From: Ostreococcus lucimarinus
Lineage: Eukaryota
Strand: one strand, 5' to 3'
NCBI GenBank assembly: GCA_000092065.1
Contig: CP000591.1
DNA: 64,000 nt
Shown: one piece after another, positions 11,377 through 59,038 of the stretch
Numbering within the stretch: position 1 is the first letter of the stretch
How the letters are laid out: every line of letters starts with the position of its first letter
Translations under genes and position numbers: made by a program
Notes under the pieces: model-generated
The model's database searches: none
The model's input: the letters and a program-made list of their open reading frames with translations, nothing else
Told to the model about the DNA's origin: nothing

Positions 11377-11410
11377 TATATGTGGACGTATATTTTGTTG
11401 TCCACGAATG

Positions 11411-11447
<37 letters not shown>

Positions 11448-11611
11448 CGCCTCCAGTCTCGACACAGTATCACTGAGTTCACTGCGAAGTTCGTCGATTT
11501 GCTGATCTCTCGAGGCAACGGCGGCCTCTAAATCGGCGATTTGAGCGTCGTGCTCGACGATTCTTTCGTGCAGCTCCTGGTTTGACTTGACGAGCACAGG
11601 AATGATTTGAG

Positions 11612-37100: not shown

Positions 37101-39006
37101 GTGAAATCATCAAGTTATCGCCGAAACTCGCGCTGGGGTCCTTCGACACGTGAATCCAAGGCGTCGGTGTGAACGACGTCGTCACCATGAGAAAGCCGAG
37201 CGAAGCAAAAACCATCGGAACGAGAGCGACTCGCAGGATTAACACGCGAAGTACGAACCCGACAGCTTTCACACGGTCTCTAAAGTCGCCCACGCGTTTC
37301 GAGTATGTCCTGCGCCTCAACGCGTACTCCGCCATGAGCTCCATTCTCTCAGCAGCTTCGCGAGGTATCAAGCGCAAATTGAGCGGCGAAGTCGTCTCCA
37401 AGCGCACGGTTCGGAGTATAGCTTCATCGCTACCGTTCTCCCACGCGACGTCGGGAACAACTTTGAAACGCTGTTTTTCGCGATCGCGCACTGGAGTGAA
37501 ATCATCTCGCATCGCAACTGGTTGAAGAAGAACACGTCGCATCGTCTTGCTCATCATCGCGTGCACTTTGGCCAACTTGTTCACTTGCACAGTCTCTTCG
37601 TCGACTTGCGCACCGCCACCTGATTCGGCGTCTGGGTCGTCCGAGTATTGCGTTAATGTTTTATCGCCGCCAAGCTCTACGTACTCCGCGAATGCCCACA
37701 TGCATTGATCAAAATGGTCTCGGACACGTCCACAAAACTTGACGACTACAGGGCAAATGACAACGCCGAACAAAAGCACGACGAACCAGTTCGTGAGCTC
37801 CGTCTTGGCACCACGCTCCGTCATATCCGGGCCGAATAAACCAGGGTAGAAGAACACGTCCGCTATCGCATCGCGATACATTTCGTTTGAATGACTCGAG
37901 CGGCGCCATGCAAACGCCGTAAATGCAAAGAACTCGATGTACAGCTGGAATCGAAGAAGATTGTGGCTCCAATACTCCTTGTCCAAGACCTTGGCCAACT
38001 TGTAACGAAACATTAGTGCAAACGTAGCGCTCCTTAGTCGCACGGTGTACTTCACCCACGCCATAAGTTTCGATGCGGTCGCGACAAGTTGCTCGCCAAC
38101 CATACTTCGACGCCGCTCGGCGCGCTCCGTTGCGTACAAATTCTTCTGAAACTGTTCCTCAGCTTCGTTCCACAGTCCCGCCTCTTTGGCCGCTCGTTCT
38201 CGCGCCGACTTTTTCTTGTCGACGAGTATATTTTTCAAATCTCGATCTAAATCAATCTTCGTGACGTACGTGATGTGCTCGCTCTTAATCTCCTGCGTCA
38301 ATTCATCCAGCTCTCGCTTGTACTCGTCATCCAACTCTGCGTCGGCTTCACCGCTCCCAATCATCTTATAAGACGCCCCGACGTCTAAAATAACGTTTCT
38401 CTTATCCTCGAAATCGGAAGATTCAAGATTTCGACCGAACGAGTACGCACAAAACGCGGCGAACGCGATGAACGCCGCCGCCACAGCGGTATTCGTCGAC
38501 GTCTCGCAAGTCCACGAAACCTCCACCTCGAGCGTCTGACTCGCGTAACAACCGTTCGTATCCACCAATGCTGCAGAATACTTCCCCTCGACGTCCGGTC
38601 GCAGCGTCGCCCGCGCGCTTCCATCGACGTCAAACGTCGCGTTCGCGAACGACGTCGCGTTCGTCAGCGCGCTCGTCGCCGGCCACGACATCAGCACCCA
38701 CCGCCGCGTCGCATCACTCGCGCTCTCGAACACGTAATCATCAAAGCATCGTTTCTTAGTCGCGTCCAGCGTCGTGGCGTCGTAGGGATCGCCACCGCGA
38801 CCGGCGATTTCGAGCGTCGTCGCCTTGGCGCCGTCGTCCGCGCGCGCCGTCACCGCCGCCATCGACGCGCTCGACACCGAGCACTGCGGCAGCGCGTCCA
38901 CCGCGCGCGCGAGCGCGAGCGCACCGATCACCGCGAGCGTCAACGCTCGCGCGGCGCCGTTCGCGCGCGCGCGCGTTCGCCGCGCGCCTCGTCGTCCCCG
39001 CGGCAT
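34168..39006 (-). CDS. large multipass membrane protein of unknown family, about 1,613 aa
   Basis: Start taken at MPRGRRG... with a signal peptide (ARALTLAVIGALALARAVDA). A cysteine-containing extracellular N-region is followed by roughly 10-11 hydrophobic helices and then about 800 aa of alpha-solenoid-like cytoplasmic sequence. GC is lower, about 50%. The first 303 aa of the track ORF overlap the LIG4 5-prime region and are run-through. Confidence 0.5.
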   Translation of the reverse strand: MPRGRRGARRTRARANGAARALTLAVIGALALARAVDALPQCSVSSASMAAVTARADDGAKATTLEIAGRGGDPYDATTLDATKKRCFDDYVFESASDATRRWVLMSWPATSALTNATSFANATFDVDGSARATLRPDVEGKYSAALVDTNGCYASQTLEVEVSWTCETSTNTAVAAAFIAFAAFCAYSFGRNLESSDFEDKRNVILDVGASYKMIGSGEADAELDDEYKRELDELTQEIKSEHITYVTKIDLDRDLKNILVDKKKSARERAAKEAGLWNEAEEQFQKNLYATERAERRRSMVGEQLVATASKLMAWVKYTVRLRSATFALMFRYKLAKVLDKEYWSHNLLRFQLYIEFFAFTAFAWRRSSHSNEMYRDAIADVFFYPGLFGPDMTERGAKTELTNWFVVLLFGVVICPVVVKFCGRVRDHFDQCMWAFAEYVELGGDKTLTQYSDDPDAESGGGAQVDEETVQVNKLAKVHAMMSKTMRRVLLQPVAMRDDFTPVRDREKQRFKVVPDVAWENGSDEAILRTVRLETTSPLNLRLIPREAAERMELMAEYALRRRTYSKRVGDFRDRVKAVGFVLRVLILRVALVPMVFASLGFLMVTTSFTPTPWIHVSKDPSASFGDNLMISLFVGLGAIAVSMKMAVVSETLEPNLRPVPIFEMLSIFLKVSLATIAAYMEGELPGHGVPALDSVARLESLNSLRNIMPVVVCLVLLVAHMNIQSLRGFGQKRNESRAGAFGGAFMFAVVTYFSRIFNNPPWMSHGLVPHTGGSNWTRPGVVIGIIMTLIAMVMVRVFNHSLGDHKCIRSELEKLSDPEQVEKVEKIMTPEFIKEQVEAENRRDRVVALVAFYNLLSTEQRTQLLSPLVKKTNMPRASQTKDGENEDVGDAWDTASDAFEELGIIMHCIIDDPDQEFLQVAGEGFIRSVIHAYVQGTVEIALWCDDDSPASTWEAVKSIVSTVKDCIKGGESKTFQATVATVSMECIQSFDFANLMSTLLFKAHDIDLDMYGEDYVVSARMFRQIIDDAFEIPPRPIAKKLTQAITHVRDPDTDEVRRLDKAERVTYVARSWLRQEVKAKNRPELNWFSSLGYYAAVGRLQNEADEERLELAHDFMKTLLDASLSTDKQISFYSIRTLATLVRVGDAGPSVFAVDGLKVLFECMEAHAGSSKETFVSEILYALTNADACRSEFLSALSHLIVSMEPGKEREKIHAIELLHQSIKLEMSAVYRVMNTKSDEGEVSKKSYKAFISMSAAQFVHDALYGMLIDDEAETRELSIHALVDLITLFVWGTEGNFYDFEVPVTGSYTDAAFERFVDAAKRKMPGGALMSKTMYRRLYGDIKVQGLQKDTDKLIAVLLKIVNTDDNAGVRAAAERGISDMRALLSDDSALTAITLYDESSDVRDVRGAAPSRETLHNVSAIIHSSVERQRQKDETISKLRLNEFWRKMKEREHSGNSHRQAKSTRGGRVEIERDSDPSKGPAPPIGGRMTMVKGTTGFKRVPDQATPKIVRHPPPPPPTERLERQRRARSALHADRLAKREAASDRWYGGENFRRQRSIESANNEASEVVVSSNIAALNERPTFTAPRYGTTKVPREFRRAPRPPE

Positions 39007-39319
39007 GGATTCGCTCGCCTCGGACGCGCGCGCGCGCGCCCGCGCGCTCGCGCGCCCGCGCGCGCCGCCCGCGCGCGCGGCGCCGAGCGATGACATCGCG
39101 CTACGCCTCGCGCATGCTCGCGAGACGACGGATCGCGGGCGACGCCGTGCGTCGCGGTTTACCGTCGCGCTGCAAACGGTCGATGACTCCGTCAGAACGC
39201 GACGACGACGAAGACGACGACGAAGACGACGAAGACGCGCGCGCGCGCGCGACGGAGGCGCGGCGAAACGCGCGTCGGCGTCGCGACGACTGCGCGGCGC
39301 GAACGCGCGCGTGACGGCG

Positions 39320-42304
39320 ATGGACGACGTTGCGAATGATTCCGGGCACCGTCTCGGAACGCGCGACGGCGGCGACGACGACGACGACGACGCGGAAGAG
39401 GACGGCGCGCGGTTGACGAGCGAACCTTCGACGTCGGGCGCGTCGCTGAGATACGCCACCGCGCGCGACGTGCCGTTTCGAAAGCTGTGCGGCGCGTTCG
39501 AGGCGTTGCAGAACGAACGCGGTCGGTCCAAGGCGACGAGCGCGCGGCGGTATCGAGTGCTCGATACACTGCACGATCGATGTCTCGTGAGCGCGCGCGA
39601 TGGAACCCGCGTCGACGCGTTCGACGCGTATCGGTTGATACTGCCGGCGTTGGACAAGGAACGAGGGGCGTATTTCTTGAAACACGACGCGTTGGCCAAG
39701 GTGGTGGTGTCGGCGTTCGACATGTCTCGAGCGAGCGAGGACGCGAAAAAGTTGGAGGATTGGAAACGAAAGGGTGGCGGTAACTTTCCGCAAGTTGTTC
39801 GAGACGTTTTGGCGGGTGGACATCTCGCGGATCGTGAGAAAGATGAAGACGCGCGCACGTTGACCATCGGAGACGTGAACGAGGCGTTGGACGCATTGGC
39901 GGCGTGCGATAACAAGGATCAGCGCGCGTCGACGCTGCGGGCGCTGTTTTCAAAGATGGATGCGACGCAAGTGAAATGGACGTGCGCAATCATATTAAAG
40001 GAAACAAAAATTTCAATGGGAGAGAAGGCGATATTGCGTCATTATCACTCCGAAGCGAATGACTTGTGGGATTGGACTAGCGATTTGCGAAGAGTTTGTG
40101 AAGACTTACCGCGGCGAGACTTCCGGATGAAGCGCGAGGACATCGATGTGGGCGTAGGTTTAATTAATCCTCAGATGGCGAGAAGGCAAAACAGCATCGA
40201 TGCCGTGTACCGCGCGTTGAAAGGTACGCAGTTTGTCATCGAAACCAAATTCGACGGCGAGCGCATTCAAATTCACAAAGACGGCGACATCATCAACTAC
40301 TGGACGAGAAACATGAACGATTTTGGCCCTCGTGGCTACGATGTGATGAATGCTCTCTTTCGTCATTTGCCAAAGCGATGCATTCTCGACGGCGAACTCA
40401 TGGTTTGGAACAAGCTTCGCGATCAGTCGTACCCGTTCGGCGCGTTGAAGAATCTCATCAAGGCTGCAAATATGCGCAAGGCCAAGGATGAATTGTTTCC
40501 ACTCAAGGCACACCTCGAAAACCGTGATGGTGGTGATAGCGACGGTGAGGAGGATCTCATGAGCTCCAAGTATGCGTGGTACGCCGAGAACGTAAAGAAA
40601 CTCACGTATGGAGACTTGGAATTGGTCTACGTTCCGTTTGATATATTGTATGCCGTCGATCGAAGTGTGAAGACTCATAAGCTGAGAGAGCGGCATGAAC
40701 TTTTGAAAGAGCATGTGCGTGAAGTATCAGTCATGTGTGGGAATATTCGTGCTAGAATTCTTCTCGCGACGCCCGATTGCGCGTTCTCACGTGTAGGCTC
40801 AACGAAGGAGGATATCGAGCGCGCGCTGTTAGAAGCGATGGATAACGGAGAGGAGGGATTGGTAATCAAAGATCTCGACGGTCCATGGATACCAGGTGAT
40901 CGTAGCAATAACTGGATGAAAATCAAACCAGACTACTTATCGAGTGAAGATTTGGACGTCGTTCTCATCGGCGGCTATTACGGCGCCGGTGAGTTGCGCG
41001 GGGGCAAAATTTCGCAGTTCCTCTGTGGCATTGTGGAGGCAACGAACGATCCGATTAGCACCGCTTCAGATGGAGTCAAAATCATGAGCTTTTGCAAGGT
41101 AGGTACTGGTATCAGCGCCATGCAGCTCGACGATTTGAGAAGTCGGCTAGGCGACTTCATGCACAGAGAAAAGCCTCAAGACATGAACTACAACGTCACG
41201 GATGCTTACAACGAAAAGCCGGACGTTTGGATCTGGCCTCCTCAGCGATCATTGGTTGTGACGGTGAAAGGTGACATTCGTGCGATTCGCACGACAACTT
41301 TCGCAACTGGTTACAGCCTGCGTTTCCCCCGCGTCACCGGTATTCGATATGACAAAAAATGGTCCGACATCTTGACACTCTGCGATCTCTTAAAGACGAT
41401 TGAAGAGGAAGTACCGACATTGAAAGTGAATATCGACGATACACGAGGCGGTACGAATGCCCGAAAGCGTTCGCGCACGACGGGACCCGCGACGCTACTA
41501 CCTGCACATCTCATGCCGGTTGACGTTTCGGGCGTCGTGCAGGAATCTGAAATCTTCAAAAACATGCAAGTGCACATCGCGAACTGTGAAAGTCGAGAAC
41601 AAAAGCAGGAGCTGTTCAAAGCTGTCATCGCACGTAGTGGTACTACGAGTGAGTTGTGGCACAAGCATGTGACGCACAGCGTTGCGTTGAACCGCGACGG
41701 CTCAAAGTTCAGGACGGCGAGTCGGGAAGGCGATGTGTACACGATTGCCTGGCTCCAAGAGTGCATTCACGAAGGACGTGTGGTACCGCCGAAACCTCGA
41801 CATCGCTTACATCTCTCAGCGACGACGTGGTATGGTACGGATGCCATGGATCGATACGGAGATGATCATTTCTCGGACTGCAATTTGGCCGACGTACACG
41901 CGCTCGTGCATCAAGTTGGCGATCAAACTAAGCGTTGGAAAACTGCCGAAGTTCCAGCATTGGTGGAGCTCGATCGCGAGTATCCATCGGTGTGTGCTGA
42001 TGTGAAACTTTTGACGTTTAGGGGTTGTGTGTTCGAGATTGACGATTCTCTCGGCAAAGATGCGCGTGTTGATGAGCAGAGTAGTATGTTTCCAAGTGTG
42101 CTGGCGGGCGAACGTCGAAACGTCGAACAGATTCTTCGGATTTATGGTGGAAAGCTCGCACCTGAAGGCAGAATGGGGACACATATTGTGCGCATGTACG
42201 ATGACTCCGTTGTCTTTGAAGATATGGATGATGGAAGAAAGCAAGTTTCGCTCTCTTGGGTGAAACGTTGCATCGACCGGTCGACAACGGCTGATGTAGT
42301 CTAA
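39320..42304 (+). CDS. LIG4: DNA ligase IV (ATP-dependent, NHEJ) with tandem C-terminal BRCT domains
   Basis: Adenylation motif ETKFDGERIQIHKDG, OB-fold region, and two BRCT-like modules (IFKNMQVHIANCESREQKQELFKAVIARSGT and LRIYGGKLAPEGRMGTHIV). ATG at 39320 (MDDVANDS). Confidence 0.85.
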   Translation: MDDVANDSGHRLGTRDGGDDDDDDAEEDGARLTSEPSTSGASLRYATARDVPFRKLCGAFEALQNERGRSKATSARRYRVLDTLHDRCLVSARDGTRVDAFDAYRLILPALDKERGAYFLKHDALAKVVVSAFDMSRASEDAKKLEDWKRKGGGNFPQVVRDVLAGGHLADREKDEDARTLTIGDVNEALDALAACDNKDQRASTLRALFSKMDATQVKWTCAIILKETKISMGEKAILRHYHSEANDLWDWTSDLRRVCEDLPRRDFRMKREDIDVGVGLINPQMARRQNSIDAVYRALKGTQFVIETKFDGERIQIHKDGDIINYWTRNMNDFGPRGYDVMNALFRHLPKRCILDGELMVWNKLRDQSYPFGALKNLIKAANMRKAKDELFPLKAHLENRDGGDSDGEEDLMSSKYAWYAENVKKLTYGDLELVYVPFDILYAVDRSVKTHKLRERHELLKEHVREVSVMCGNIRARILLATPDCAFSRVGSTKEDIERALLEAMDNGEEGLVIKDLDGPWIPGDRSNNWMKIKPDYLSSEDLDVVLIGGYYGAGELRGGKISQFLCGIVEATNDPISTASDGVKIMSFCKVGTGISAMQLDDLRSRLGDFMHREKPQDMNYNVTDAYNEKPDVWIWPPQRSLVVTVKGDIRAIRTTTFATGYSLRFPRVTGIRYDKKWSDILTLCDLLKTIEEEVPTLKVNIDDTRGGTNARKRSRTTGPATLLPAHLMPVDVSGVVQESEIFKNMQVHIANCESREQKQELFKAVIARSGTTSELWHKHVTHSVALNRDGSKFRTASREGDVYTIAWLQECIHEGRVVPPKPRHRLHLSATTWYGTDAMDRYGDDHFSDCNLADVHALVHQVGDQTKRWKTAEVPALVELDREYPSVCADVKLLTFRGCVFEIDDSLGKDARVDEQSSMFPSVLAGERRNVEQILRIYGGKLAPEGRMGTHIVRMYDDSVVFEDMDDGRKQVSLSWVKRCIDRSTTADVV

Positions 42305-43708: not shown

Positions 43709-45987
43709 CTATTCAATATCACCAAGTCCTGTCCTAGTTCTGTCGTCTTCGTCTCTTGATTGTGCGGCGCACCGCGTGTCGGCGAGCGCCTTGGGTAATT
43801 TGTAAGCCCACTCACACGAGCATGTTATTGGATCTTTCAATACCTCTGTCACGACGCCTCGAGTGGCGAGACGAGATTGCTCTCCCTCCGCGATGCCGCA
43901 GTGCCGCTCCACAACTCGCGGCTCGTACTCTTTTCCATCCTTTCCCCCGCCGCTGCGAGGTCGACCTTGCTTGTCGTACGCTTCGTTGAAGCAGAAGTAC
44001 TGGTCGTGGTTGAGCGCGTTGTTGATCGCCGTATCAAATGCCTCGTCCTTTTGTTTATCATCGAAACCGCAAAATGAGCCTTCATCGAGTTGGTCGATCA
44101 TGATGACGCCGTGATCGTTATACGATTCCAGCGCCTCGACGGCGTCACTCGCTGAGAAACCGCGCTCGATGACGACATCAGCCATGTTTTTGTCGTCTTT
44201 CGCGCCAATTTTAACGTGAATGACATCTTCTCGAACGTTCCCTTTAAGTCGCATGTCTTCGAGGAACCCTGCTTCGCGAAAATCAACGCCCAAGTCATGC
44301 AAGCCTTCGAGGTTGTAGATGTGATCCATCGGGCACGCGTACGGCAAATGCGCCGTCTCGGCGCCGAGCGCGCGACATCCGGCGAGCGTGTTCCATATTT
44401 TATCGCAGTAACATCGCGCGGGTGGTAGCACAAAGATTCGTCCGAGCGCTTTCGCCAGGGCGAAGCCGTTTCGAATCGTCGTTCTTCGCAATCTGTCCTC
44501 TTCAAAGTGTCGCGTGATGGCGGTTAAATACGCATCGTTTTCCATGCCGATGGCCCGAGAACCATTGAACTTCATCTGCGACCCTTTGGTGGAGATGGTC
44601 AAGTACTTCTTTGGCTTCCAATAATCTGTGTCATCGTCTGCATACCATAAACCATGCTGTCGCAGTCTTTGACGCTTGCCGTACGCGTACCGCGCAGAAT
44701 CGCCGTATTGGTACGTCGTGTGCACCGCGTACGGCTCACCGTCCTCGGGGTGGTACAAGTGGTGCTCTTGCACGAAGAAAGTATGACCGTTGGAGAATTG
44801 CGCGATGGGCAAAACGCCCATGCGAATCGTGCTGTTTGCTGCGAAGACGATCGAGCGATACCCCGGTAATCCGCGCTTGTCATCGGGAACCGCCACCGCG
44901 GGCGCGAGCGCGGGAGATCCTTCGCGCACGAGCAAATTCAGCGCCGGCTGGTCGCGCATCCACGCGATCTCGCTCGTCGCTACTTTTTGCTTCCACTTTT
45001 CCACGAACGCCTTCGCCGGCTCCGTGGGCCGAATGTGCACGATGCCCGTGTTAAAGTTGACGTTGCGACAGTTGGCGTTGTCGGCGCGATCGTTCACGGT
45101 GTCGATGCAATCGCTCGATATCAGCACGTCCGCGTATGCGTAAGTGCCGTTGTTGAATAGCTCGCGCGGATCGCGCATCCAAACCACGTCCGCGTCGCTC
45201 AGAATCGGCGCTATCCCAAGCTCGAGCAAATCTTGAATAAACTTCGTCTTCACCGTGCCCATCTTTTTAAACGTCTTGCTCTTTTGCGTGATGAACTCTT
45301 GATCCCTATTATCCAACACTGACCGCCCCGTGAGCAGCATGGATGGTATCCCAGCCTTAACACATAGTGTGTGCATCTCTTCGTCTAAAGCGCCGACGAA
45401 TATCGGCTCTAAACTCAACTTTTTCGCCGCCGCCGCCCAATTGAAGACGAAATCCTGCACGCTCGCCGTGCCAAACGTCACGAACATCTCCCCCCCAGCC
45501 TTAGCGCCGACCCGCCGCAACTCCTCCGGCACGTGTTCCATCTTCTTTCCAAGCTCCATTTTCGCCGCATCATCGAGCGCATCCGCGGAAACGTCCTTCC
45601 ACGCCTGTCGCATCCACTTCGGCTCGTCGTCGTCGATCGCCAGCCCCGCGAACGTCGTCGCCGGCGGTTCCAACAGCGCGAAATCCATCCCCCGATCCCT
45701 CGGCCTCGATCCCGTCGACGCCGCGTCATCGCGTCGGTTCAATTCCACCCGTCCTTTTTCTCCCTCGTCCGTCGTCGTCGTCGTCGTCGTCGCCGACGCG
45801 AACCGATTTCTCCGCGTCGCCGACGCGTTCGCGTTCGCGTTCGCGTTCGCGTTCGCCGCCGCGTTCGCGTTCGCGTCCGCGTCCACCGCCGCCTCCACGG
45901 CCGCGTCGCTCCGCGCGCGCGCCGTCGCGTCGTACATCGACGCCGACGCGTCGTCGCCCGCCCTCCGCGCCGTCGCGTCGTCGATCG

Positions 45988-46021
<34 letters not shown>

Positions 46022-46177
46022 CGCCATCGCGCGCGCGTTCGCCTCGCGCGCCGTCGTCGCGGCGTCCGCGATCGCGCCGTCGCGCGCGCCGCCGCGCGCG
46101 CCCTCGCGCATCACCATCGCGCACGCCGCGACGACGGCGACGCACGCGAGGCGGCGCGCGAGGCGGCCGCGACGCAT
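43709..46177 (-). CDS. nucleotide-diphospho-sugar transferase, GT77-like type II membrane glycosyltransferase
   Basis: Start taken at MRRGRLARRLACVAVVAAC (signal anchor). Ala/Asn/Thr-rich stem. Nucleotid_trans-like catalytic region with LSDADVVWMRDP (DxD) and a Cys-rich C-terminal domain. The track ORF upstream of about 46177 is Arg-rich run-through. Confidence 0.5.
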
Positions 46178-46603
46178 CGCGTCGCCTCGCGTCCCGCACT
46201 GACGCGCGCGGCACCGACGCGCCTCGCGTCGACGAGCGAGCGAGCGATGGACGCGGTGCGCGACGCGACGCGACGCGACGCGAGACGCGAGACGCGCGCG
46301 CGAGGCGACGCGACGCGCGCGACGAGAGAGGGCGACGCGCGCGCGAGGCGATGATGATTCGACGCCAACCGACGACGATCGGATCGGCGCGAGAACGGAC
46401 GCGCGAAGACGCGCGGCGCGAGGACGGACGCGCGCGACGACGCGACCGTGGACGCGCGAACGATCGACGCGCGCGGACGCGACGCGCGGCGACGGAGAAG
46501 AGGAAACGAAGACGATGAGACGATTGGAGCGATTGTTTGACTGACGGCGACGACGGCGCGGCGACGACGATTCGAATAGGCGATCGAAAAATGGTGCGCC
46601 GAG

Positions 46604-47338
46604 ATGGGCACGACGCCCGAAAAGGTGGTGACGATGTACTTGGATGAAAAGTTTAAGTCGGCGACGGTCGAGGGGGAACTTTTGGCCAAGTGTGAAAACT
46701 TGAAGACGCTGTCGTGCGCGTCGTGCGGGTTGACGACGCTCGCGGGGTTCCCGGCGCTGGCGAATTTGAAGGATTTGAGTTTGAACGATAATCGCATCGC
46801 GGATGGGTTGGAAGCCTTGGTGGGGTGCAAGGCGCTCTCGTCGTTGTCGCTGGCGAATAATAAGCTGGCGAACGTGGACGATTTGAAAGCCGTGGCGGAG
46901 GAGTTGACGCTGTCGGTGCTCGAGTTGGAGGCGAATCCGTTGACGGAGAACGAAGACTATCACGAAAAGGTCATGACCATGATGCCCACGCTTAACGTGT
47001 TGGACGGAAGGGACGAGTTCGGGAATGAGATCGAAGACGACGACGAAGACGACGACGAAGACGAAGACGACGAAGACGACGAAGACGAAGACGAAGACGA
47101 CGATGAAGACGACGAAGACGCAGACGAAGACGAAGACGAAGACGAGTCCGAGGAAGAGGAAGAGGAAGAGGAAGAGGAGATGGGCTTAGCCGATCTCTAC
47201 GGCGACAAGCCGCTCGAAGACGACGACGACGACGACGACGCTTTCGTCGAAGACGAAGATCCCGAGAGCGAAGACATCGACGAAGAGGAGTCGGACGACG
47301 ACGAAGACGAAGCGGCGGCGAAAAAGCCCAAAATATAA
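46604..47338 (+). CDS. ANP32: acidic leucine-rich nuclear phosphoprotein 32 (ANP32) family protein
   Basis: LRR plus LRRcap (LSLNDNRIADGLEALVGCKALSSLSLANNKLANVDDL...NPLTENEDYHEKVMTMMPTLNVLDG) followed by a long poly-Asp/Glu tail and a basic KKPKI end. Confidence 0.75.
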   Translation: MGTTPEKVVTMYLDEKFKSATVEGELLAKCENLKTLSCASCGLTTLAGFPALANLKDLSLNDNRIADGLEALVGCKALSSLSLANNKLANVDDLKAVAEELTLSVLELEANPLTENEDYHEKVMTMMPTLNVLDGRDEFGNEIEDDDEDDDEDEDDEDDEDEDEDDDEDDEDADEDEDEDESEEEEEEEEEEMGLADLYGDKPLEDDDDDDDAFVEDEDPESEDIDEEESDDDEDEAAAKKPKI

Positions 47339-51742: not shown

Positions 51743-53545
51743 CTAACGCTTTTTGCTGAAATAATTCGTAATTTCGTTCTTACGCTTCACGCCGCCACCG
51801 GTGGACTTGTCTAACAAGCCCATGGACGCTCGAATCTCGCGCTGAATCGCCTCCGGGAGCTCGGCCAACACGTTTTTGTCGATTTGATCAGCCTTGATCG
51901 GACTCGCCGCGGGCGTCGCCGACACCGACGCCGGCGCCTTGGCTGCTTTCGTCGCGTTCTTAAACATCTCCACGACGTCGCCGCTGTCTTTTTCGAGCGA
52001 CACGAAATTTGACGCCGACACGGACATCCCGGTGATCGACCAACGCTCGCGACCACTGGCCCATTTCGAGAGCAACGTGAGCGCGTCTTGCGCCATTTCG
52101 TCCGCGCCAGGTCGCAAAGGACACCGTCGCGAGCAATGCCCACTGCTCGTCTCGCGCTCATCCGGGCTCGAAAGACCTAAAGTCAACAGCTTTGGCACGC
52201 GATTCCACTCTTCTTCGTCCGCCTCGCACCGATCGTTCAACTCGGCGGTGAGTTCGGCGAGCCAGTGCTTGGCGCTCGCGATGGAGCGAATCGCCAACGC
52301 CCCTCGAAACGTCTTCCCGGTGCCGATGCTTTTCGGCATCTCGCGCGCTTTGACAGGGTCATCATCTAAACCTAAAGACACTTTGCGCACCCACTGCGCT
52401 TTTTCTTCCCCACAAACTTCCTCGAGCTTGCGCAGCGGCGTCCTCGCGAGTTCGCCGATGGTTTTCACGTTTAAACCATCCGCGAGCTCGCGTCCAAACT
52501 TGGCACCTAAACCGCGAATGCGGTCGATGGGTAATTCATCTAAAAGCGTCGACGTGTGGTCGGGACAGAGTACCGTTTGCGACGCCGGCTTGTTCATCCC
52601 ACTCGTCAGCTTGGCGAGCATTTTGTTCAACGCGATGCCCGCGCTCAACGTGTACCCGAGCTCGTCCACGCACGCCTTGCGAAGATTGAAACAAATGTAC
52701 GCCCCCGCGGCGAGAAGTTTCTCTTCCTCTCGCCATTCGCTCTCGTCTCTATTCCACCACGCCACGGACGCCTCATCAGGAGGTCGCGGTCGAAAATTTC
52801 GCATCGGATCTTCTTCTTCCTTCGCCGCCGCCTCGACCGTCGCGTCCCCCGCCGCCGCCGCCTCGACCGACGCGTCCCCCGCCGCCGCGTTCTCGATGGT
52901 CTCCTCCACCGCGCCCGCGCCCAGCACCGGTCCATCCGCGCTGCCCGCCCGCAGCGCCTTCTTACTCACGTATCCTTTCCCGCTCACCGCGCTCGCGCCC
53001 GCCGCGTGACTCGTCCTCGCCTTTTCCAAAATCGTCGCCCACGCCGTCTCCTCCAAAACCTTCTTCGCGCTCTCCGTCAGATCCAAGTACGCCTCGTCGA
53101 TGCTCGCCCGCTCGATCGTCCCTCCGCGCGCCAGCACCGCCGCCACCTCGCGTCCCGCCTCCCTGTACAGCGTCAAATCCGCCTTCGACCGCCGCGTCGG
53201 CACCTGCACCACCGCGCACGCCGGCGCCAGCGCCCTCGCCTCGCGTCCTCGCATGTTCCGCTTCACCCCTCTCGCGCGCGCCTCGTACGACACCGCGATC
53301 AACGAGTGATTTTCGAACCCATCGCGAAGCTCTCGATCGTCGTCCGGCGCCAGCGCGCGCACGCCGCCGCGCTCGAACGGATTATACTGCACCACCACCA
53401 GCGGGACATCCTCCGCCGACGCGCGCCCGTCGCGGCGCCCCGCCGCGGTCTTCGCGCGCAGATCGCGGCGCTCGACCTGGCAGTAAAACGCGTCGAGGTC
53501 CAGGTGCGCGACGACGCGGTGCGTCGCGATCGCGCGCGTCGTCAT
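51743..53545 (-). CDS. POLH: DNA polymerase eta (Y-family translesion polymerase)
   Basis: VAHLDLDAFYCQVE (compare ALVDMDCFFVQVE), SIDEAYLDLT catalytic motif, and little-finger region. Confidence 0.8.
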   Translation of the reverse strand: MTTRAIATHRVVAHLDLDAFYCQVERRDLRAKTAAGRRDGRASAEDVPLVVVQYNPFERGGVRALAPDDDRELRDGFENHSLIAVSYEARARGVKRNMRGREARALAPACAVVQVPTRRSKADLTLYREAGREVAAVLARGGTIERASIDEAYLDLTESAKKVLEETAWATILEKARTSHAAGASAVSGKGYVSKKALRAGSADGPVLGAGAVEETIENAAAGDASVEAAAAGDATVEAAAKEEEDPMRNFRPRPPDEASVAWWNRDESEWREEEKLLAAGAYICFNLRKACVDELGYTLSAGIALNKMLAKLTSGMNKPASQTVLCPDHTSTLLDELPIDRIRGLGAKFGRELADGLNVKTIGELARTPLRKLEEVCGEEKAQWVRKVSLGLDDDPVKAREMPKSIGTGKTFRGALAIRSIASAKHWLAELTAELNDRCEADEEEWNRVPKLLTLGLSSPDERETSSGHCSRRCPLRPGADEMAQDALTLLSKWASGRERWSITGMSVSASNFVSLEKDSGDVVEMFKNATKAAKAPASVSATPAASPIKADQIDKNVLAELPEAIQREIRASMGLLDKSTGGGVKRKNEITNYFSKKR

Positions 53546-53587
53546 TCCGCGACGACGGACGCGCGCGCGACGGTTGCGATGTCGACG

Positions 53588-54904
53588 ACGTCGCGCGCGA
53601 TCGCGACGCCGCGGATCGACGCGCGCGCGCGCCGAGCGAGGACGACGCGATCGACGCGCGCGCGCGCGTCGACCGAGGACGACGGTCCGGCGACGTCGCG
53701 ACGCGCGGCGACGCTGAGGAATGAGGGCGCGTACGCGGTGCTCGAAAAAGTCGCGGCGCTCGAGCGACGAAGCGACGCGAAGGGCGCGAAGCGAGTGCTG
53801 CGATTGGAGATCGGACAGCCGGGATTCGCGACGCCGGCGCGCGTGTGCGACGCGGCGGTGCGAGCGATCGAGGGAGGGGAGACGAAGTACGCGGCGCCGA
53901 GCGGCGCGCCGAGGCTGCGCGAAGCCGTCGCGGAGTATCTCGTGAGAACGCGAGGCGTGGCGTACGAGGCGGAAAACGTGGTCGTGGGACCGGGCGCGAA
54001 GCCGGGGCTGTTTTTGCCGACGCTCGCGTGTTGCGATCCGGGAGATGAGGTGGTGTATCCGGATCCCGGATTTCCGACGTACGCGGCGATGTGCGCGGCG
54101 GCGGGCGCGACGCCGAGACCGGTGCCTCTGCGGAGCGATGGCGCGAGTTTCGACATGGCGGCGCTGGAGGCGAGCGTGAACGAGAAGACGAAGATGATCG
54201 TGATCAATTCTCCGGGGAATCCGACCGGTGGGGTGATGCCGAGAGAGGACGTGGCGGCGGTCGCGCGGCTGGCGAAAAAGTTCAACTGTTGGGTGATGAG
54301 CGATGAAATATATTCGCGATTGATTTACGACGACGAGGAGGAGGGGGGGGAGAACGACGAGAAGATATTCAGCATCTGTGCCTTGGATGGGATGAAGGAG
54401 CGCACGATTTTAGTCGACGGCTTCAGCAAGACCTATTGCATGACCGGGTGGCGTCTCGGCTGGGTGGCGTGCCCGAAACATCTCGCCGAGAAGATCAAAC
54501 TTCTCACCGTACACAGCGTTGGCTGCGTCGCTGCGTTCACGCAAATCGCCGGCGTCGAGGCGCTCACGGGCCCTCAAGACTCGGTGAAGGCGATGCGAGA
54601 CGAATATCGCGTCCGACGCGACTTCGTCGTCGACGCCCTCAACGACATCCCCGGCATCTCCTGTCCCGTGCCCAAGGGCGCTTTTTACGCCTTCCCGTCT
54701 TTTGACTTCCCCGACGTCACCGCCCAAGAGCTCGCGGATTACCTCTTAGAGGACGCCCGCGTCGCGCTCTTGCCCGGCACCGACTTCGGCGCCGCGGGCG
54801 AGCGTCACTTGCGACTCTCCTACGTCGGCGAGCTCTCCGATCTCCGCGAAGCCATGGCGCGGATCAAGACGTCTCTGGCCAAGCGCTTTCCCGACTTCGT
54901 TTAA
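53588..54904 (+). CDS. class I/II pyridoxal-phosphate aminotransferase (aspartate/aromatic family)
   Basis: ATG at 53588 (MSTTSRAIATP, presequence-like). LRLEIGQPGF, NSPGNPTGG, and the PLP-lysine motif FSKTYCMTGWRLGW. It is head-to-head with POLH, 42 bp apart. Confidence 0.8.
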   Translation, partial: TSRAIATPRIDARARRARTTRSTRARASTEDDGPATSRRAATLRNEGAYAVLEKVAALERRSDAKGAKRVLRLEIGQPGFATPARVCDAAVRAIEGGETKYAAPSGAPRLREAVAEYLVRTRGVAYEAENVVVGPGAKPGLFLPTLACCDPGDEVVYPDPGFPTYAAMCAAAGATPRPVPLRSDGASFDMAALEASVNEKTKMIVINSPGNPTGGVMPREDVAAVARLAKKFNCWVMSDEIYSRLIYDDEEEGGENDEKIFSICALDGMKERTILVDGFSKTYCMTGWRLGWVACPKHLAEKIKLLTVHSVGCVAAFTQIAGVEALTGPQDSVKAMRDEYRVRRDFVVDALNDIPGISCPVPKGAFYAFPSFDFPDVTAQELADYLLEDARVALLPGTDFGAAGERHLRLSYVGELSDLREAMARIKTSLAKRFPDFV

Positions 54905-55237: not shown

Positions 55238-58200
55238 GTGAGGACGAAAAGAGGCGACATGGGGCACGCTTCGAACGATGCGAGCGGTCGCGGTCGACGA
55301 GGGATGACGTCGGGGACGGCGCTGCGAGCGTTGATGGCGGCGAGCGCGGCGACGTTGGCGCGCGCGAGCGCGACGACTTCGACGTGCGATTATTACATGA
55401 CGCCCGAGGGTGAGGGAACGACGATCGGGCAAACCGACGCGGGTACTATCATGAATCCGTTCGGGAGCTTGGAGGAGGCGCAGTTGGCGCTGAAACCGGG
55501 GCAGACGCTGTGCGTGTTGAGCGGGACGTACGAGCTCGACACGTTCATCGGGGCGGAGATCTTGGCGCGAGGTAATGCCGACGCGCCGATTACCATTCGC
55601 GGCTACCGCACGAGCGATGGTGCGGATTTGCCAAAGTTCCGGTTTAGCGGTGGTGTTGCGTTGGATTTTAGAGGTGCCGAGTACGTCACCGTAGAAGACA
55701 TTGAAGTCGACGGCGGCGCCTCGGAGGCGACTACGGAGGATGTCGTCAAAGCGTGGTGGAATGGTGAAAAGCTCGCGCACGTGGGTAGGACTTGCTTTAG
55801 AATTGGTCAAAAGTCGCGACACGTGAGCATCAAGCGAAACGCGTGCCACGACGTCAGTGAGGTGGCGGTAAACGTCGTCGACGCGTTATATTCATCAATC
55901 AAGCTCAACGTGTTTTATCGCATCGGTTGGTTTGGTGTCGGCGATATCGCTGCGGTGAAACGCACATACACCGCCGCGGTGGACGAAGACGAAGAAGATG
56001 ACTATCGGCTGGATGTACAAGGCAACGCGATCTGGGGCGTCGAATCGCACTTGTATGAGCGAACGGAGAATGCTTCGTACTCCAAATTTGTGAAGACTTT
56101 CGGCGTCGCTTTGGACGCTGTGGCGGATGAAGATCTACGAATGCGATTTTCCGAGAACGTCATCGCGTTCAACGCTAACGTTGGGATGAAGATCGCGCGT
56201 TCGCCGTACGTTGTCGTGAGCAAGAACACGTTCTACTCCGATCCCACCGCCGGCGCGTCTTTACTCACTGACTCAGCCATGACTTCGAAGTTAATTTTGA
56301 AGGATAACATCTTCTCCACGAGTCAAAGTGCTGACTTCGCGCTCGATGTGGGCGCATCATATGGTACCGATATCGATCCTGATTTCTTCCGCAACAACAT
56401 TGTCGCCGGAGGCGGTGCGGTTCTCGATGGCAACCTCACCGTCACGCGTATCTCGTCGCAACTCTTCGCGGATGCCGCGCACGGCAACTTTACCCTTCTT
56501 CCGGCGGCCGAAGAAAGTATCAACGCCACTACGGTACCAGGAGTGGATGCGGCGGTTTTGAAGGTTCTCGCTCGCGTGATGAAGGATTTCAATGCCGGTA
56601 CGATGGCGAGAAGCGAGTGGGTGGCGAATCACAAGACGCTCACCCAGTTGATCATCAAAACGGCGCCGTCGATGTACACAAAAATCACGTCCACGCGAAA
56701 AGGTCCGGAAGACGCATCGGTGCAGTTCACTGATCCCGTCACGAATGAGTTTTTCACGTTGAAACTCAATCCTGCGTACGCGCGCGATCTTTTCGAGCGC
56801 GGTGCGTCTCCGTTGGACGGCTCCGAGGATGAGAACGCGTATCCGTTGGATGGCCCCGACGATGAGAACGCGTATCCGATCTCTGTGGGTGCACTCGGTC
56901 AAGGTTACCCGGCGAATAACACTGGTTACCCGTCGAATAGCACTGGTTACCCGTCGAGTAGCACTGGATACCCGTCGGATAGCACTGGTTCTGGTTACCC
57001 GTCGAATAGCACTGGATACCCGGCAAGCGGATACCCGGCGAATAGCACTGGATATCCGGCAAAGGGATACCCGGCGAACAGCAACGGATATCCGGCAAAG
57101 GGATACCCGGCGAACAGCACTGGATATCCGGCAAAGGGATACCCGGCGAACAGCAACGGATATCCGGCAAAGGGATACCCGGCGAACAGCACCGGATATC
57201 CGGCAAAGGGATACCCGGCGAACAGCAACGGATATCCGGCAAAGGGATACCCGGCGAACAGCACCGGATATCCGGCAAAGGGATACCCGGCGAACAGCAA
57301 CGGATATCCGGCAAAGGGATACCCGGCGAACAGCAACGGATATCCGGCCAACAGCGATGGGTATCCAGCGACGCGGACGCCAGCCATGCCGGAAAGCATC
57401 GCCGAACAGATAGAAGACGCCGTCGCGGACGCCGTCCAGCAAATTCAAAGTGTCACGGCGAACGCGACTGAGGAGATTGTACAGGCTGAGGCAGAAGCGG
57501 TGACTAACGTGACCGAGACGGCGGGAGACGAAGAAGGATCCGACGTGGATGAGTTGTTGGCGGACGCCACAAATGACGTTTCGCCACCGCCGCCACCGCC
57601 GCCGCCGCCGAGACGCAAGCCGCCGCCGCCGCCGCCGCCGTACCCGGGCACGGTCCAACCGCCGTCGCCACCGCTTCCGCCGGCACCTCCTCATGTGGAT
57701 AGCGAAGCTGGCCTCGTGAATGGTCGCATCGTCATTCCCGTAAGGGACACGCTCAGAGATTTCCTTCTGGAGAGAAATGAAGTAGTGAACGCGTCCTCGA
57801 TGAGCTTGGACCATCCGGATGAAGATGTATCCGAAATCGAAGATCTTGAGCCGGAGTGCTACAATCCTCCGCGCGGATGTCCGGCCATATTCCATTTGAG
57901 CAACTACAGAGCTCAAGCGGTGTCAAAAGTGTCTGATGACTCGTCCACGTCGTACTCGAGCGACCGAGCGGCGTTCGCGGCGTATCGTGGCGAGCGTTTC
58001 GCTACTGAACAGTCACGAGGTTCGGTGCAGGAGTTCGATGCACAGCGGCCGGTGGAAGATAGTCCGTACGGACCGAACATTGATAGAGCCTTCTTTGCCG
58101 CACTTGGGATGCAAAAGGAGTCCGCATTCAAACCGAATGAGATCATCGCCCCGATGGCTGTCCTCATGGTCATCGCCGCCGCGGTTGTCGCGAGCGAGAG

Positions 58201-59038
58201 ATTGACAAAGCGAGGTCCAATCGAGGAACGCGCTTCGTTGTTAGCGTCGACTTCTGACGTGGCCGAGCGTGAGGCGAGCAAGTTGCGAGCGATGAAGACG
58301 AGAAGGAATGCGATGGTCGCGTCGGCTCTTGCGGGTGTGTTCTTCGTCGCCACCGCCACTTCGTCGACGCCCGGAGCGGCGGCTGTGATGCGCGCAAAGA
58401 AGGAGGTGGCGCAGCTAGGCTCTAAGCTAGCGGACTGTGCCGGTAAGTTCTACGTTGTGAACTTACCTTTCTCTTCGTGCGCCGTCAAGGGAAGCGAAAT
58501 TCCTGTCGGTGCTCGGCCATTCCCTCTCGAAGACTTCATCAAATTTGAGGCTTTCGTCGTCGCGAGGCTCGGTTGGGGTGGATTCTGGTCTATGAAATCA
58601 TCGGGCTATGAAATCCGTTCCGCCGCTCGTGCGCACGTCATCGAGGAGCGTCGCGTGAAGAACGAAGAAAATGTCACCAACGGCTTGATGGATTATCATC
58701 GTCAGTGCTTGCGAACAAAGACGTGGTGCCTTGAAGAGGGGAGCGAAAACGCGTGCTGCAGGGACATGCCGGTGACGGCTGTTGAACAAGAAGAAGATGA
58801 CCTGGAGTTCAACACGTACGACTCGATCCTTCGCAATTTGTGCGGATGCGCGTTGATGATGGATAAGACACCGACGGGATGCGGACAAATCGACGCTCTT
58901 GGACGAGATTTGTACTGCGATAGAATGCGCGCGATGGGGATGGGCGACGATCTCCCCGCATGCTGCGATGCTCCGAACCCGTTCCGCGTGCAGGAATGCC
59001 TATGCAAAGGAGACGAGAATCACATGGCGTACACATAA
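55238..59038 (+). CDS. secreted/cell-surface protein with an N-terminal parallel beta-helix region, GYP tandem repeats, a polyproline segment, TM helix or helices, and a Cys-rich C-terminus
   Basis: Signal peptide. Beta-helix-like repeats (NAIWGV, SENVIAFNANVGMKI, LKDNIFSTSQSADFALDVG, FRNNIVAGGGAVLDGN). About 13 units of GYPAKGYPANS(T/N). PPPPPPPPPRRKPPPPPPPYP. Hydrophobic IIAPMAVLMVIAAAVVA and AMVASALAGVFFVATA. Terminal CC...C.C...C..CC...C.C. Confidence 0.55.
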   Translation: MRTKRGDMGHASNDASGRGRRGMTSGTALRALMAASAATLARASATTSTCDYYMTPEGEGTTIGQTDAGTIMNPFGSLEEAQLALKPGQTLCVLSGTYELDTFIGAEILARGNADAPITIRGYRTSDGADLPKFRFSGGVALDFRGAEYVTVEDIEVDGGASEATTEDVVKAWWNGEKLAHVGRTCFRIGQKSRHVSIKRNACHDVSEVAVNVVDALYSSIKLNVFYRIGWFGVGDIAAVKRTYTAAVDEDEEDDYRLDVQGNAIWGVESHLYERTENASYSKFVKTFGVALDAVADEDLRMRFSENVIAFNANVGMKIARSPYVVVSKNTFYSDPTAGASLLTDSAMTSKLILKDNIFSTSQSADFALDVGASYGTDIDPDFFRNNIVAGGGAVLDGNLTVTRISSQLFADAAHGNFTLLPAAEESINATTVPGVDAAVLKVLARVMKDFNAGTMARSEWVANHKTLTQLIIKTAPSMYTKITSTRKGPEDASVQFTDPVTNEFFTLKLNPAYARDLFERGASPLDGSEDENAYPLDGPDDENAYPISVGALGQGYPANNTGYPSNSTGYPSSSTGYPSDSTGSGYPSNSTGYPASGYPANSTGYPAKGYPANSNGYPAKGYPANSTGYPAKGYPANSNGYPAKGYPANSTGYPAKGYPANSNGYPAKGYPANSTGYPAKGYPANSNGYPAKGYPANSNGYPANSDGYPATRTPAMPESIAEQIEDAVADAVQQIQSVTANATEEIVQAEAEAVTNVTETAGDEEGSDVDELLADATNDVSPPPPPPPPPRRKPPPPPPPYPGTVQPPSPPLPPAPPHVDSEAGLVNGRIVIPVRDTLRDFLLERNEVVNASSMSLDHPDEDVSEIEDLEPECYNPPRGCPAIFHLSNYRAQAVSKVSDDSSTSYSSDRAAFAAYRGERFATEQSRGSVQEFDAQRPVEDSPYGPNIDRAFFAALGMQKESAFKPNEIIAPMAVLMVIAAAVVASERLTKRGPIEERASLLASTSDVAEREASKLRAMKTRRNAMVASALAGVFFVATATSSTPGAAAVMRAKKEVAQLGSKLADCAGKFYVVNLPFSSCAVKGSEIPVGARPFPLEDFIKFEAFVVARLGWGGFWSMKSSGYEIRSAARAHVIEERRVKNEENVTNGLMDYHRQCLRTKTWCLEEGSENACCRDMPVTAVEQEEDDLEFNTYDSILRNLCGCALMMDKTPTGCGQIDALGRDLYCDRMRAMGMGDDLPACCDAPNPFRVQECLCKGDENHMAYT
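56900..57365 (+). repeat. 36-bp coding minisatellite of about 13 units (GGATACCCGGCGAACAGCAACGGATATCCGGCAAAG)
   Basis: Direct reading. Units alternate AGCACC and AGCAAC and encode the GYPANS(T/N)GYPAK repeat. Confidence 0.8.

Follow-up and report, generated by a model that had tools for sequence, protein, structure and literature searches.

A single open reading frame (ORF) at positions 55238–59038 (+ strand) of a 64,000-nucleotide stretch of Ostreococcus lucimarinus DNA (contig CP000591.1 of assembly GCA_000092065.1; here called the window) appears to encode a large, modular protein of the cell surface. We give roughly even odds (about 50%) to the reading that this is a two-pass membrane glycoprotein, displayed at the surface and trafficked by the cell, whose beta-helix head would engage an extracellular glycan. 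Two narrower claims, that the ORF is one gene and that its head has a beta-helix fold, are held with high confidence. The original prediction, made from the letters of the sequence alone, described one modular protein of cell-surface type, and nearly all of the anatomy described was found; these features are not due to chance. No free-living eukaryote is smaller than Ostreococcus, which serves as a model for marine picophytoplankton and is generally described as lacking a wall, scales and flagella. All its contact with viruses, grazers, bacteria and mates is therefore made through the surface of the plasma membrane, and the gene would encode one of the few large, obviously surface-displayed proteins of this alga. 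A wall- or scale-associated role had been suggested for the protein, and in a cell without wall or scales there would be nothing for it to attach to.

The ORF is uninterrupted over 1266 codons counted from a GTG, with its stop codon at 59036–59038. The GTG start at 55238 is a product of the bacterial ORF rule, and the candidate ATG starts are at 55259 (M8), 55304 (M23) and 55334 (M33). The GC content at third codon positions exceeds that at second positions (GC3 > GC2) in nearly every block of 50 codons, including the repeats and the C-terminal part, and the pattern over the three positions (GC1/2/3) is coding-like along the ORF. A full HMMER scan with the head as query, covering 1.84 billion cluster representatives, returned the close relatives P0050 (1163 amino acids (aa), 99% identical), P0051 (1252 aa, 49%) and P0052 (1140 aa, 44%). 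P0225 (1110 aa), which represents a fourth lineage, was taken from the cluster of P0004, a 45% identical protein that has the first transmembrane (TM) helix, the loop, the second TM helix and the Cys-rich domain within one ORF. P0051, P0052 and P0225 are all single ORFs of 1110–1252 aa with their modules in the same order as in the window protein. On the metagenome contigs of P0051 and P0052 the gene stands between aminotransferase and Rad51 genes, as in the window, and a PolH-like gene upstream and a DCP1-like gene downstream are likewise common to the window and both contigs. From these comparisons, the gene is conserved and syntenic across the genus Ostreococcus. The original prediction had allowed that two genes might be joined here by run-through. 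This is ruled out by the collinear, stop-free single-ORF orthologs in three diverged lineages, two of them syntenic, since the frame stays open across linkers between modules that are rich in indels among the four orthologs, in four lineages at 44–50% protein identity.

The exact protein, taken from five possible starts, had no identical entry in a collection of 15 billion sequences. This collection does contain other proteins of the window, one being an O. lucimarinus RefSeq entry, and the reference annotation probably mis-models or omits the gene. A metagenome contig that is 99% identical to the window (L001) carries a 1-bp insertion at its positions 11400–11480, corresponding to about 56650 of the window (GAGA-AGCG in the window, GAGAGAGCG in L001). 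The insertion shortens the ORF to 491 aa (P0001), which points either to pseudogenisation of this allele or to a mistake in the assembly.

The protein begins with a putative signal peptide at aa 23–45 (55304–55372; MTSGTALRALMAASAATLARASA, ending in ARASA and followed by TT), assigned heuristically from hydropathy, small residues at −3/−1 and the stronger N-termini of the orthologs. The predicted signal peptide is plausible and, in the window allele, weak, with a best 10-aa Kyte–Doolittle score of 1.7; the N-termini of the orthologs are clearly hydrophobic (2.2–2.7). The head that follows comprises a right-handed parallel beta-helix core resembling polysaccharide lyase family 9 (PL9) at aa 47–440 (55376–56557) and a small alpha/beta subdomain at aa 441–525 (56558–56812). 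The subdomain was delimited from predicted secondary structure and is kept in the wider family, whose consensus continues through it as ...W..D....T..I....P. The head alone scores 26.8 bits against Pfam Beta_helix (PF13229), above the gathering cut-off of 25.9 bits; the whole protein scores 23 bits, under the cut-off, and the ortholog P0051 scores 29.7 bits. An AlphaFold2 (AF2) model of the head, based on an alignment of 22 sequences, has a mean pLDDT (predicted local distance difference test) of 82.9 and a pTM (predicted template-modelling score) of 0.85, and consists of a long series of short regular strands followed by the small alpha/beta subdomain. Fold matches to the model include the alginate lyase PsAly, PL6 lyases, mannuronan epimerases, chondroitinase B, the adhesin PfbA and phage tailspikes, and the head has the stacked coils with three parallel sheets that define the pectate-lyase-like superfamily. 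We regard the modelled fold of the head, a pectate-lyase-like right-handed parallel beta-helix of about 480 aa, as a solid assignment; the beta-helix originally proposed has thus survived structure prediction.

The wider relatives of the head form an uncharacterised family of more than 200 proteins (216 at E ≤ 1e-3). Dozens of phmmer homologs with E-values of 1e-33 to 1e-20 align over about 420–480 residues, the post-helix subdomain included, at 24–30% identity. Named bacterial members come from Photobacterium, a Sulfurovum metagenome-assembled genome (MAG), Thiothrix, Thiolinea, Oceaniferula and Nonlabens (two adjacent copies), and eukaryotic members are scattered (PTSG_08606 of Salpingoeca rosetta, P0060; a transcript of Biecheleria cincta, P0057). 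A mostly bacterial family with such patchy eukaryotic members hints at horizontal transfer. Many members carry He_PIG Ig-like domains. The loci of the bacterial relatives (L004–L012) are heterogeneous in context, ORFs of more than 2000 aa adjoin the gene in several of those inspected, and no obvious polysaccharide-utilisation locus surrounds the inspected bacterial genes. Profile matches of the head family were to the BT4170 rhamnogalacturonan lyase (5olq, E 2e-11), a xylosidase (3vst, E 5e-10) and Pel9A (1ru4, E 4e-8). The match to 5olq and 1ru4 falls mainly on the N-terminal cap (profile positions 80–189), a second stretch contributing only 6.7 bits. A precomputed match to PF22842 (Pel9A-like_beta_helix) is listed for P0001, P0051 and P0052 and was not reproduced by hmmscan. 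On this sequence evidence, PL9 membership in the CAZy sense is not established.

The strongest polar motifs of the head family are S-L-S-G-G-H-G-I-M-R, V-E-Q-R-I-Y-S, I-D-E-G-K and I-R-L-K. An alignment was made of 41 bacterial and other head domains, the four Ostreococcus orthologs and both domains of P0054, a distant relative described below. In the 41 homologs and the P0054 domains, conservation is 70–100% for GGHGI, for Q and R in VEQRIYS and for IDEGK. All of these are replaced in the four Ostreococcus orthologs, which read GVGDIAAVKR, VESHLYE (QR changed to SH) and V--KTFG and retain only one basic residue of IRLK. Positions G236 and D285/E286/G287, which are 90–100% conserved elsewhere, are replaced or deleted in the four orthologs; P0054 retains all four motifs in both of its beta-helix domains. 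The Ostreococcus heads do retain the structural Asn and Gly ladder positions and W174, H204 and E269. That the Ostreococcus head is degenerate and possibly non-catalytic is a reasonable but unproven interpretation of these sequences. The loss of family-conserved polar motifs weakly favours glycan binding over cleavage, and we advance binding rather than catalysis only tentatively. The competing possibility is an enzyme, tethered to the membrane and active as a polysaccharide lyase, hydrolase or epimerase, that would remodel or degrade an extracellular acidic polysaccharide, with the stalk as a spacer. We consider such an enzyme rather unlikely. For comparison, the mechanism of Pel9A involves a catalytic Lys base together with a Ca2+-binding Asp cluster in the cleft of parallel beta-sheet 1 (the lysine base per PMC6796002).

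Behind the head the protein carries a stalk of tandem repeats. Tandem Repeats Finder reports a 33-bp repeat in 2.3 copies with DENAYPLDG-type units (56804–56878), a 21-bp repeat in 5.4 copies (56903–57022), a 36-bp repeat in 9.8 copies with 95% matches and no indels (56996–57348), and a CCG run (57582–57640). Dissection of the repeats, anchored on GGNTAYCC, resolved the stalk proper (56903–57380) into 25 GYP units: five GYPxxST heptads, nine 12-aa units and two more heptads. The 12-aa units comprise one GYPAS and eight GYPAK, each then followed by GYPANS[T/N], and the alternation of NSN and NST units creates a higher-order period of 72 bp. The near-perfect 36-bp repeats that had been noticed from the sequence are thus present, their 12-aa units numbering nine and not about 13. 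Within the repeats there are seven sequons (N-S-T/N-N-T), carried among the NSN and NST units only by the latter. The window protein has 28 YP dipeptides, compared with 4 expected from its composition. The earlier description of the repeats as rich in Tyr, Pro and N-x-S/T sequons holds for this protein, with the qualification that the sequons are species-specific, the orthologs sharing Y-P in a Ser/Thr-rich context.

Between species the stalk sequence is poorly conserved, with 10–17% identity and mostly gaps. In every ortholog, short tandem units around Y-P in a Ser/Thr/Ala/Asn context occupy the stalk position (GYPAKGYPANST in the window protein; NNYPTATPS, SEYPSSD and AYPS/AYPA in the orthologs). 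A low-complexity stalk of about 190 aa, Tyr-Pro and Ser/Thr-rich, is strongly supported. By analogy with the hydroxyproline-rich glycoproteins (HRGPs) of green algae, it is probably hydroxylated and O-/N-glycosylated; the analogy is based on the HRGPs of the green lineage (PMC7773692). The predicted length polymorphism was recovered among near-identical alleles: there are eight GYPAK units in the window, three in the 99% identical contig L001 and two in P0050, with allele differences of 180 and 216 bp, that is, whole 36-bp units, and these repeat numbers come from metagenome assemblies, in which assemblers can collapse such arrays. The ortholog clusters likewise differ by whole units of 7 or 9 aa: the cluster of P0052 includes proteins with 1, 2 or 3 DSEYPSS units, P0213 has one additional NNYPATTGQ unit relative to P0051, and P0207 has one PPPPTATVVN unit fewer. 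Such differences support in-frame expansion and contraction of the stalk repeats.

The stalk is followed by an acidic segment at aa 713–782 (57374–57583), read from the sequence, which has a helical-looking residue pattern and two N-x-T sequons and is partly conserved in P0051 and P0225. Next comes a proline-rich rod (57584–57691), read from the sequence and coinciding with the CCG run, in which nine and seven prolines are split by RRK, as originally described, and are followed by PSPPLPPAPP. A juxtamembrane module at aa 819–900 (57692–57937) contains two conserved Cys (ECY.PP..C) and a DHPDEDVS motif, and is 67%, 34% and 38% identical to the orthologs in the ortholog alignment.

In the same alignment the identities to the three orthologs amount to 75/64/62% and 71/50/56% for two blocks of the C-terminal domain, compared with 51/46/44% for the head. 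With tblastn against the two syntenic orthologs, the C-terminal domain is 71% and 51% identical and the head 50% and 44%; the corresponding values for neighbouring genes are 70/68% for the aminotransferase and 78/71% for Rad51, so the 71% of the C-terminal domain to L002 is about that of the neighbouring aminotransferase (70%). No other part of the protein is as well conserved in these alignments as the Cys-rich C-terminal domain. The idea of a fast-evolving head was dropped, as the neighbouring DCP1-like gene is at least as diverged. A second competing possibility concerns such diversification: the protein could serve in recognition or adhesion and be subject to diversifying pressure, for example as a prasinovirus attachment site or decoy, or in gamete or cell–cell recognition, with stalk length under selection. 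The surface-exposed architecture, a stalk that is variable in length in every lineage and a stalk sequence that has diverged between species while keeping its Y-P character are consistent with it, and the host receptor of Ostreococcus viruses is not identified in PMC12906663. The gene, however, stands in an ordinary syntenic context, the divergence of its head is within what the neighbouring genes show, IMG/VR yielded no viral relative of the Cys-rich domain, and searches of BFVD with the head gave only generic beta-helix matches (tailspike and pectate-lyase folds with low TM-scores). Apart from the repeats, the comparisons gave no positive sign of an arms race, and we judge this recognition role unlikely. 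Less probable again is its most specific form, a lineage-specific picoalgal receptor serving as prasinovirus attachment site or decoy, in which co-evolutionary conflict would shape the head and stalk and the 12-Cys ectodomain would signal or hold a complex.

The original prediction counted one or two hydrophobic helices; helices are present and their number is settled as two. TM helix 1 (TM1; aa 969–986, 58142–58195) reaches a Kyte–Doolittle score of 2.25 and occurs in all orthologs. TM helix 2 (TM2; aa 1025–1043, 58310–58366), with a score of about 1.6, is conserved in the orthologs and is followed by a run of small residues, ATS-S/T-TP. The two hydrophobic segments are 35–40 residues apart in all four orthologs. 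The loop between them (58196–58309) is about 35 aa long, basic and probably cytosolic, and Arg and Lys are concentrated on the loop side of both helices. Its only invariant 7-mer, found by alignment and motif scan in all four orthologs, is EERASLL at 58223–58243, which fits the acidic dileucine pattern [DE]xxxL[LI]. ERASLL thus has the form of an acidic dileucine signal, and its cytosolic exposure and adaptor binding would follow from the topology and the motif. A gene for the AP-3 beta adaptor subunit lies in the same window, therefore the adaptor machinery exists.

It is reasonably likely, judging from sequence features, that the protein forms a hairpin with the head outside, TM1, a cytosolic loop, TM2 and the C-terminal domain again outside. 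This arrangement is the simplest for an N-terminal signal peptide combined with two TM helices, and it fits the positive-inside distribution of charges and the 14 Cys of the C-terminal domain. The distant relative mentioned above, P0054/P0216 (JGI and Logan metagenome proteins of 1576 and 1702 aa), has the order signal peptide, beta-helix, TM, TM, 12-Cys module and second beta-helix, and the second beta-helix following the Cys module argues that this module is on the same side as the head. The Ala-rich composition of P0054/P0216 suggests a GC-rich picoeukaryote as their source. The Cys-rich end had been described as a tail; it is most likely extracellular and not cytoplasmic, since two TM helices flank the basic EERASLL loop.

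The TM2 region can also be read in another way. In a polyprotein-like precursor, signal peptidase would cut after TM2, between ATS and S/T, and release a secreted Cys-rich domain. The region (MKTRRN-AMVASALAGVFFVATATSS-TPGA) does resemble a classical signal peptide: in all four orthologs the n-region is basic, some 14 aa make up the h-region, and positions −3 and −1 hold small residues. A reverse signal-anchor would look equally like this pattern, however, and in P0054 a long multi-domain region follows the equivalent segment, and we find such a precursor improbable. Finally, the notion that the ORF is an artefact, either two adjacent genes or GC-rich non-coding DNA that is stop-free by chance, is effectively refuted: long spurious ORFs do arise in GC-rich genomes and occur in the window itself, but here the frame is kept across indel-rich linkers in the four lineages at the identities given above, every module is conserved, the GC3 pattern extends throughout, and there is no in-frame stop to end an upstream gene. 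The spurious ORFs in question are a 782-aa ORF at 52556–54904 (+), which extends well past the upstream end of the real aminotransferase, and an antisense ORF of 519 aa at 56357–57916 (−), which crosses the repeats; ORF length alone is weak evidence in this GC-rich window.

Under the hairpin model of a single membrane glycoprotein, the last module is the conserved C-terminal domain at aa 1045–1266 (58370–59035), which is predicted to be extracellular. Of the 14 Cys that follow TM1, 12 fall within the last 110 aa (58703–59035) with CC and CxC pairs, in agreement with the Cys-rich end and CC/CxC clusters first noticed. The spacing, kept in P0054, is C-x6-C-x8-10-CC-x19-28-CxC-x7-11-C-x11-C-x10-15-CC-x9-10-CxC, and the core motif L.NLC.C..TP.GCG.ID..GR..C aligns pairwise between the window protein and P0054 with E 6e-6. 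The Cys-rich domain has no sequence relatives in Pfam (no match at E ≤ 10), NCBIfam or the PDB. A word-indexed profile search of a set of 5.8 billion proteins with this domain returned close orthologs and fragments only, and no viral relative was found in IMG/VR. An internal duplication of the 12-Cys module was rejected, as hhalign of its two halves gave a probability of 0.2. The first 8 of the 12 Cys occur in the order C..C..CC..CxC..C..C, as in the plant eight-cysteine motif (8CM). There is no Pfam match to the lipid-transfer protein (LTP) or 8CM families at E ≤ 10 and no PDB sequence match that would place the domain among the 8CM proteins of the non-specific LTP or hybrid proline-rich protein (HyPRP) type, and the likeness to the plant 8CM is one of pattern only.

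Taken together, these features lead us to propose the following mechanism. The signal peptide would place the head outside the cell and TM1 would act as a stop-transfer sequence, leaving the basic loop, with its invariant EERASLL of the adaptor-binding [DE]xxxL[LI] type, to face the cytosol. TM2 would then re-export the chain, and the Cys-rich domain would be extracellular and disulfide-bonded. The stalk and the polyproline rod could hold the beta-helix tens of nanometres above the naked plasma membrane, where the head may bind or act on glycans or polysaccharides outside the cell. Through its dileucine loop the protein would be sorted or recycled via clathrin adaptors, and slippage in the 36/72-bp repeats would alter the stalk length in-frame.

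Several observations count against this proposal. Hydrophobicity is weak in the signal peptide of the window allele and no more than moderate in TM2, which could be cleaved in the manner of an internal signal peptide. The remaining IRLK basic residue, H204, W174 and E269 are kept in each ortholog, which would be compatible with catalysis by an altered chemistry. The divergence of the head (44–50% identity) is within the 49–78% range of the neighbouring genes and no greater than that of the DCP1-like gene. The model that AF2 produced for the TM-loop-TM-Cys region, from an alignment of 12 sequences, has a pLDDT of 31.9 and is unusable. The assembly caveat attached to the repeat numbers above belongs here as well.

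The closest parallels for the head are only partial. The PL9 enzymes Pel9A of Dickeya dadantii (1ru4) and BT4170 rhamnogalacturonan lyase (5olq) are only 15–18% identical to it, with no significant sequence match past approximately its first 100 residues; they are soluble, secreted and bacterial, whereas the window protein is membrane-anchored and has a stalk. Photobacterium marinum WP_007462767, Sulfurovum MAG TQV62778 and Salpingoeca rosetta PTSG_08606 are true homologs of the head, from a family that is often fused to He_PIG domains. This uncharacterised WP_007462767-like family retains GGHGI, VEQRIYS, IDEGK and IRLK, which the Ostreococcus orthologs have lost or changed, and lacks the YP stalk, TM hairpin and Cys-rich domain of the window protein. 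The animal proteins CEMIP2/TMEM2 (PMC10206443) are eukaryotic plasma-membrane proteins in which a pectate-lyase-like beta-helix ectodomain faces extracellular polysaccharide, and the bacterial relatives of the head give weak CEMIP_beta-hel matches. CEMIP2/TMEM2, however, cross the membrane once in type II orientation, contain G8 and GG domains but no repeat stalk, and have no detectable sequence relation to the window protein.

A beta-helix head on a variable repeat stalk is a familiar design in fungal and bacterial adhesins, such as the Awp adhesins of Candida glabrata (PMC8746771) and PfbA of S. pneumoniae (3zpp/4mr0). These proteins use glycosylphosphatidylinositol/wall or sortase anchoring in place of a TM hairpin, have no homology to the window protein beyond the fold, and lack a Cys-rich C-terminal ectodomain. 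With the HRGPs and HyPRPs of the green lineage the window protein shares a signal peptide, Pro/Tyr/Ser-rich repeats and a polyproline run, and the order of its first 8 Cys is like that of the C-terminal 8-Cys motif of HyPRPs. It differs from them in the interposed TM hairpin and in a Cys-rich domain without a Pfam LTP/8CM match. Extensins are recognised by two or more SPPP repeats (PMC4769139), and the window protein has only one run of SP(n≥3), SPPPPPPPPP. No description of the 55238–59038 protein was found in literature on Ostreococcus beta-helix, pectate lyase or HRGP proteins.

Taken singly, the elements of the protein are familiar: a beta-helix head, a repeat stalk, a polyproline run, a TM hairpin and a dileucine signal. 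What appears new is that they are joined with a TM hairpin and with a conserved 12-Cys ectodomain that has no detectable relatives, that the protein is restricted to Ostreococcus-like picoalgae, with the rearranged double-head relative P0054, and that a domain family found mostly in bacteria seems to have degenerated in a eukaryote. We see in this an unusual combination of known elements in an uncharacterised protein, and not a new principle. It seems that a eukaryote has here re-used, and possibly inactivated catalytically, a beta-helix family that is mainly bacterial, and the protein offers experimental handles in its predicted glycan-binding or glycan-processing head, its stalk of variable length, its trafficking signal and a Cys-rich domain without sequence relatives.

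The window as a whole contains genes for ribosomal protein L4, AP-3 beta, Rad51, DNA ligase and DNA polymerase alpha subunit B at a GC content of 50–70%, and the protein of the ORF at 32396–34135 is identical to the O. lucimarinus CCE9901 dihydroxyacetone kinase XP_001420308.1. The gene content and GC content are those of a compact green-algal nuclear genome, and the 55238–59038 gene was therefore read as a eukaryotic gene. An ORF of 1914 aa without a Pfam match, at 34168–39915 (−), lies where the GC content of the window is lowest (about 0.52 at 34–38 kb, compared with 0.60–0.70 elsewhere). This ORF overlaps by its 5′ part with the beginning of the DNA-ligase ORF on the opposite strand, and it could be another large lineage-specific protein. 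A 1083-aa ORF at 43709–46963 (−), approximately 8 kb upstream of 55238–59038, contains a Nucleotid_trans glycosyltransferase domain (PF03407, E 4e-46). Plant members of PF03407 include HRGP arabinosyltransferases, and a link between this glycosyltransferase and the stalk is speculation. Between 56000 and 60000, across the 55238–59038 gene and its 3′ flank, the GC content is 0.55–0.57, compared with 0.63–0.67 in the surrounding genes.

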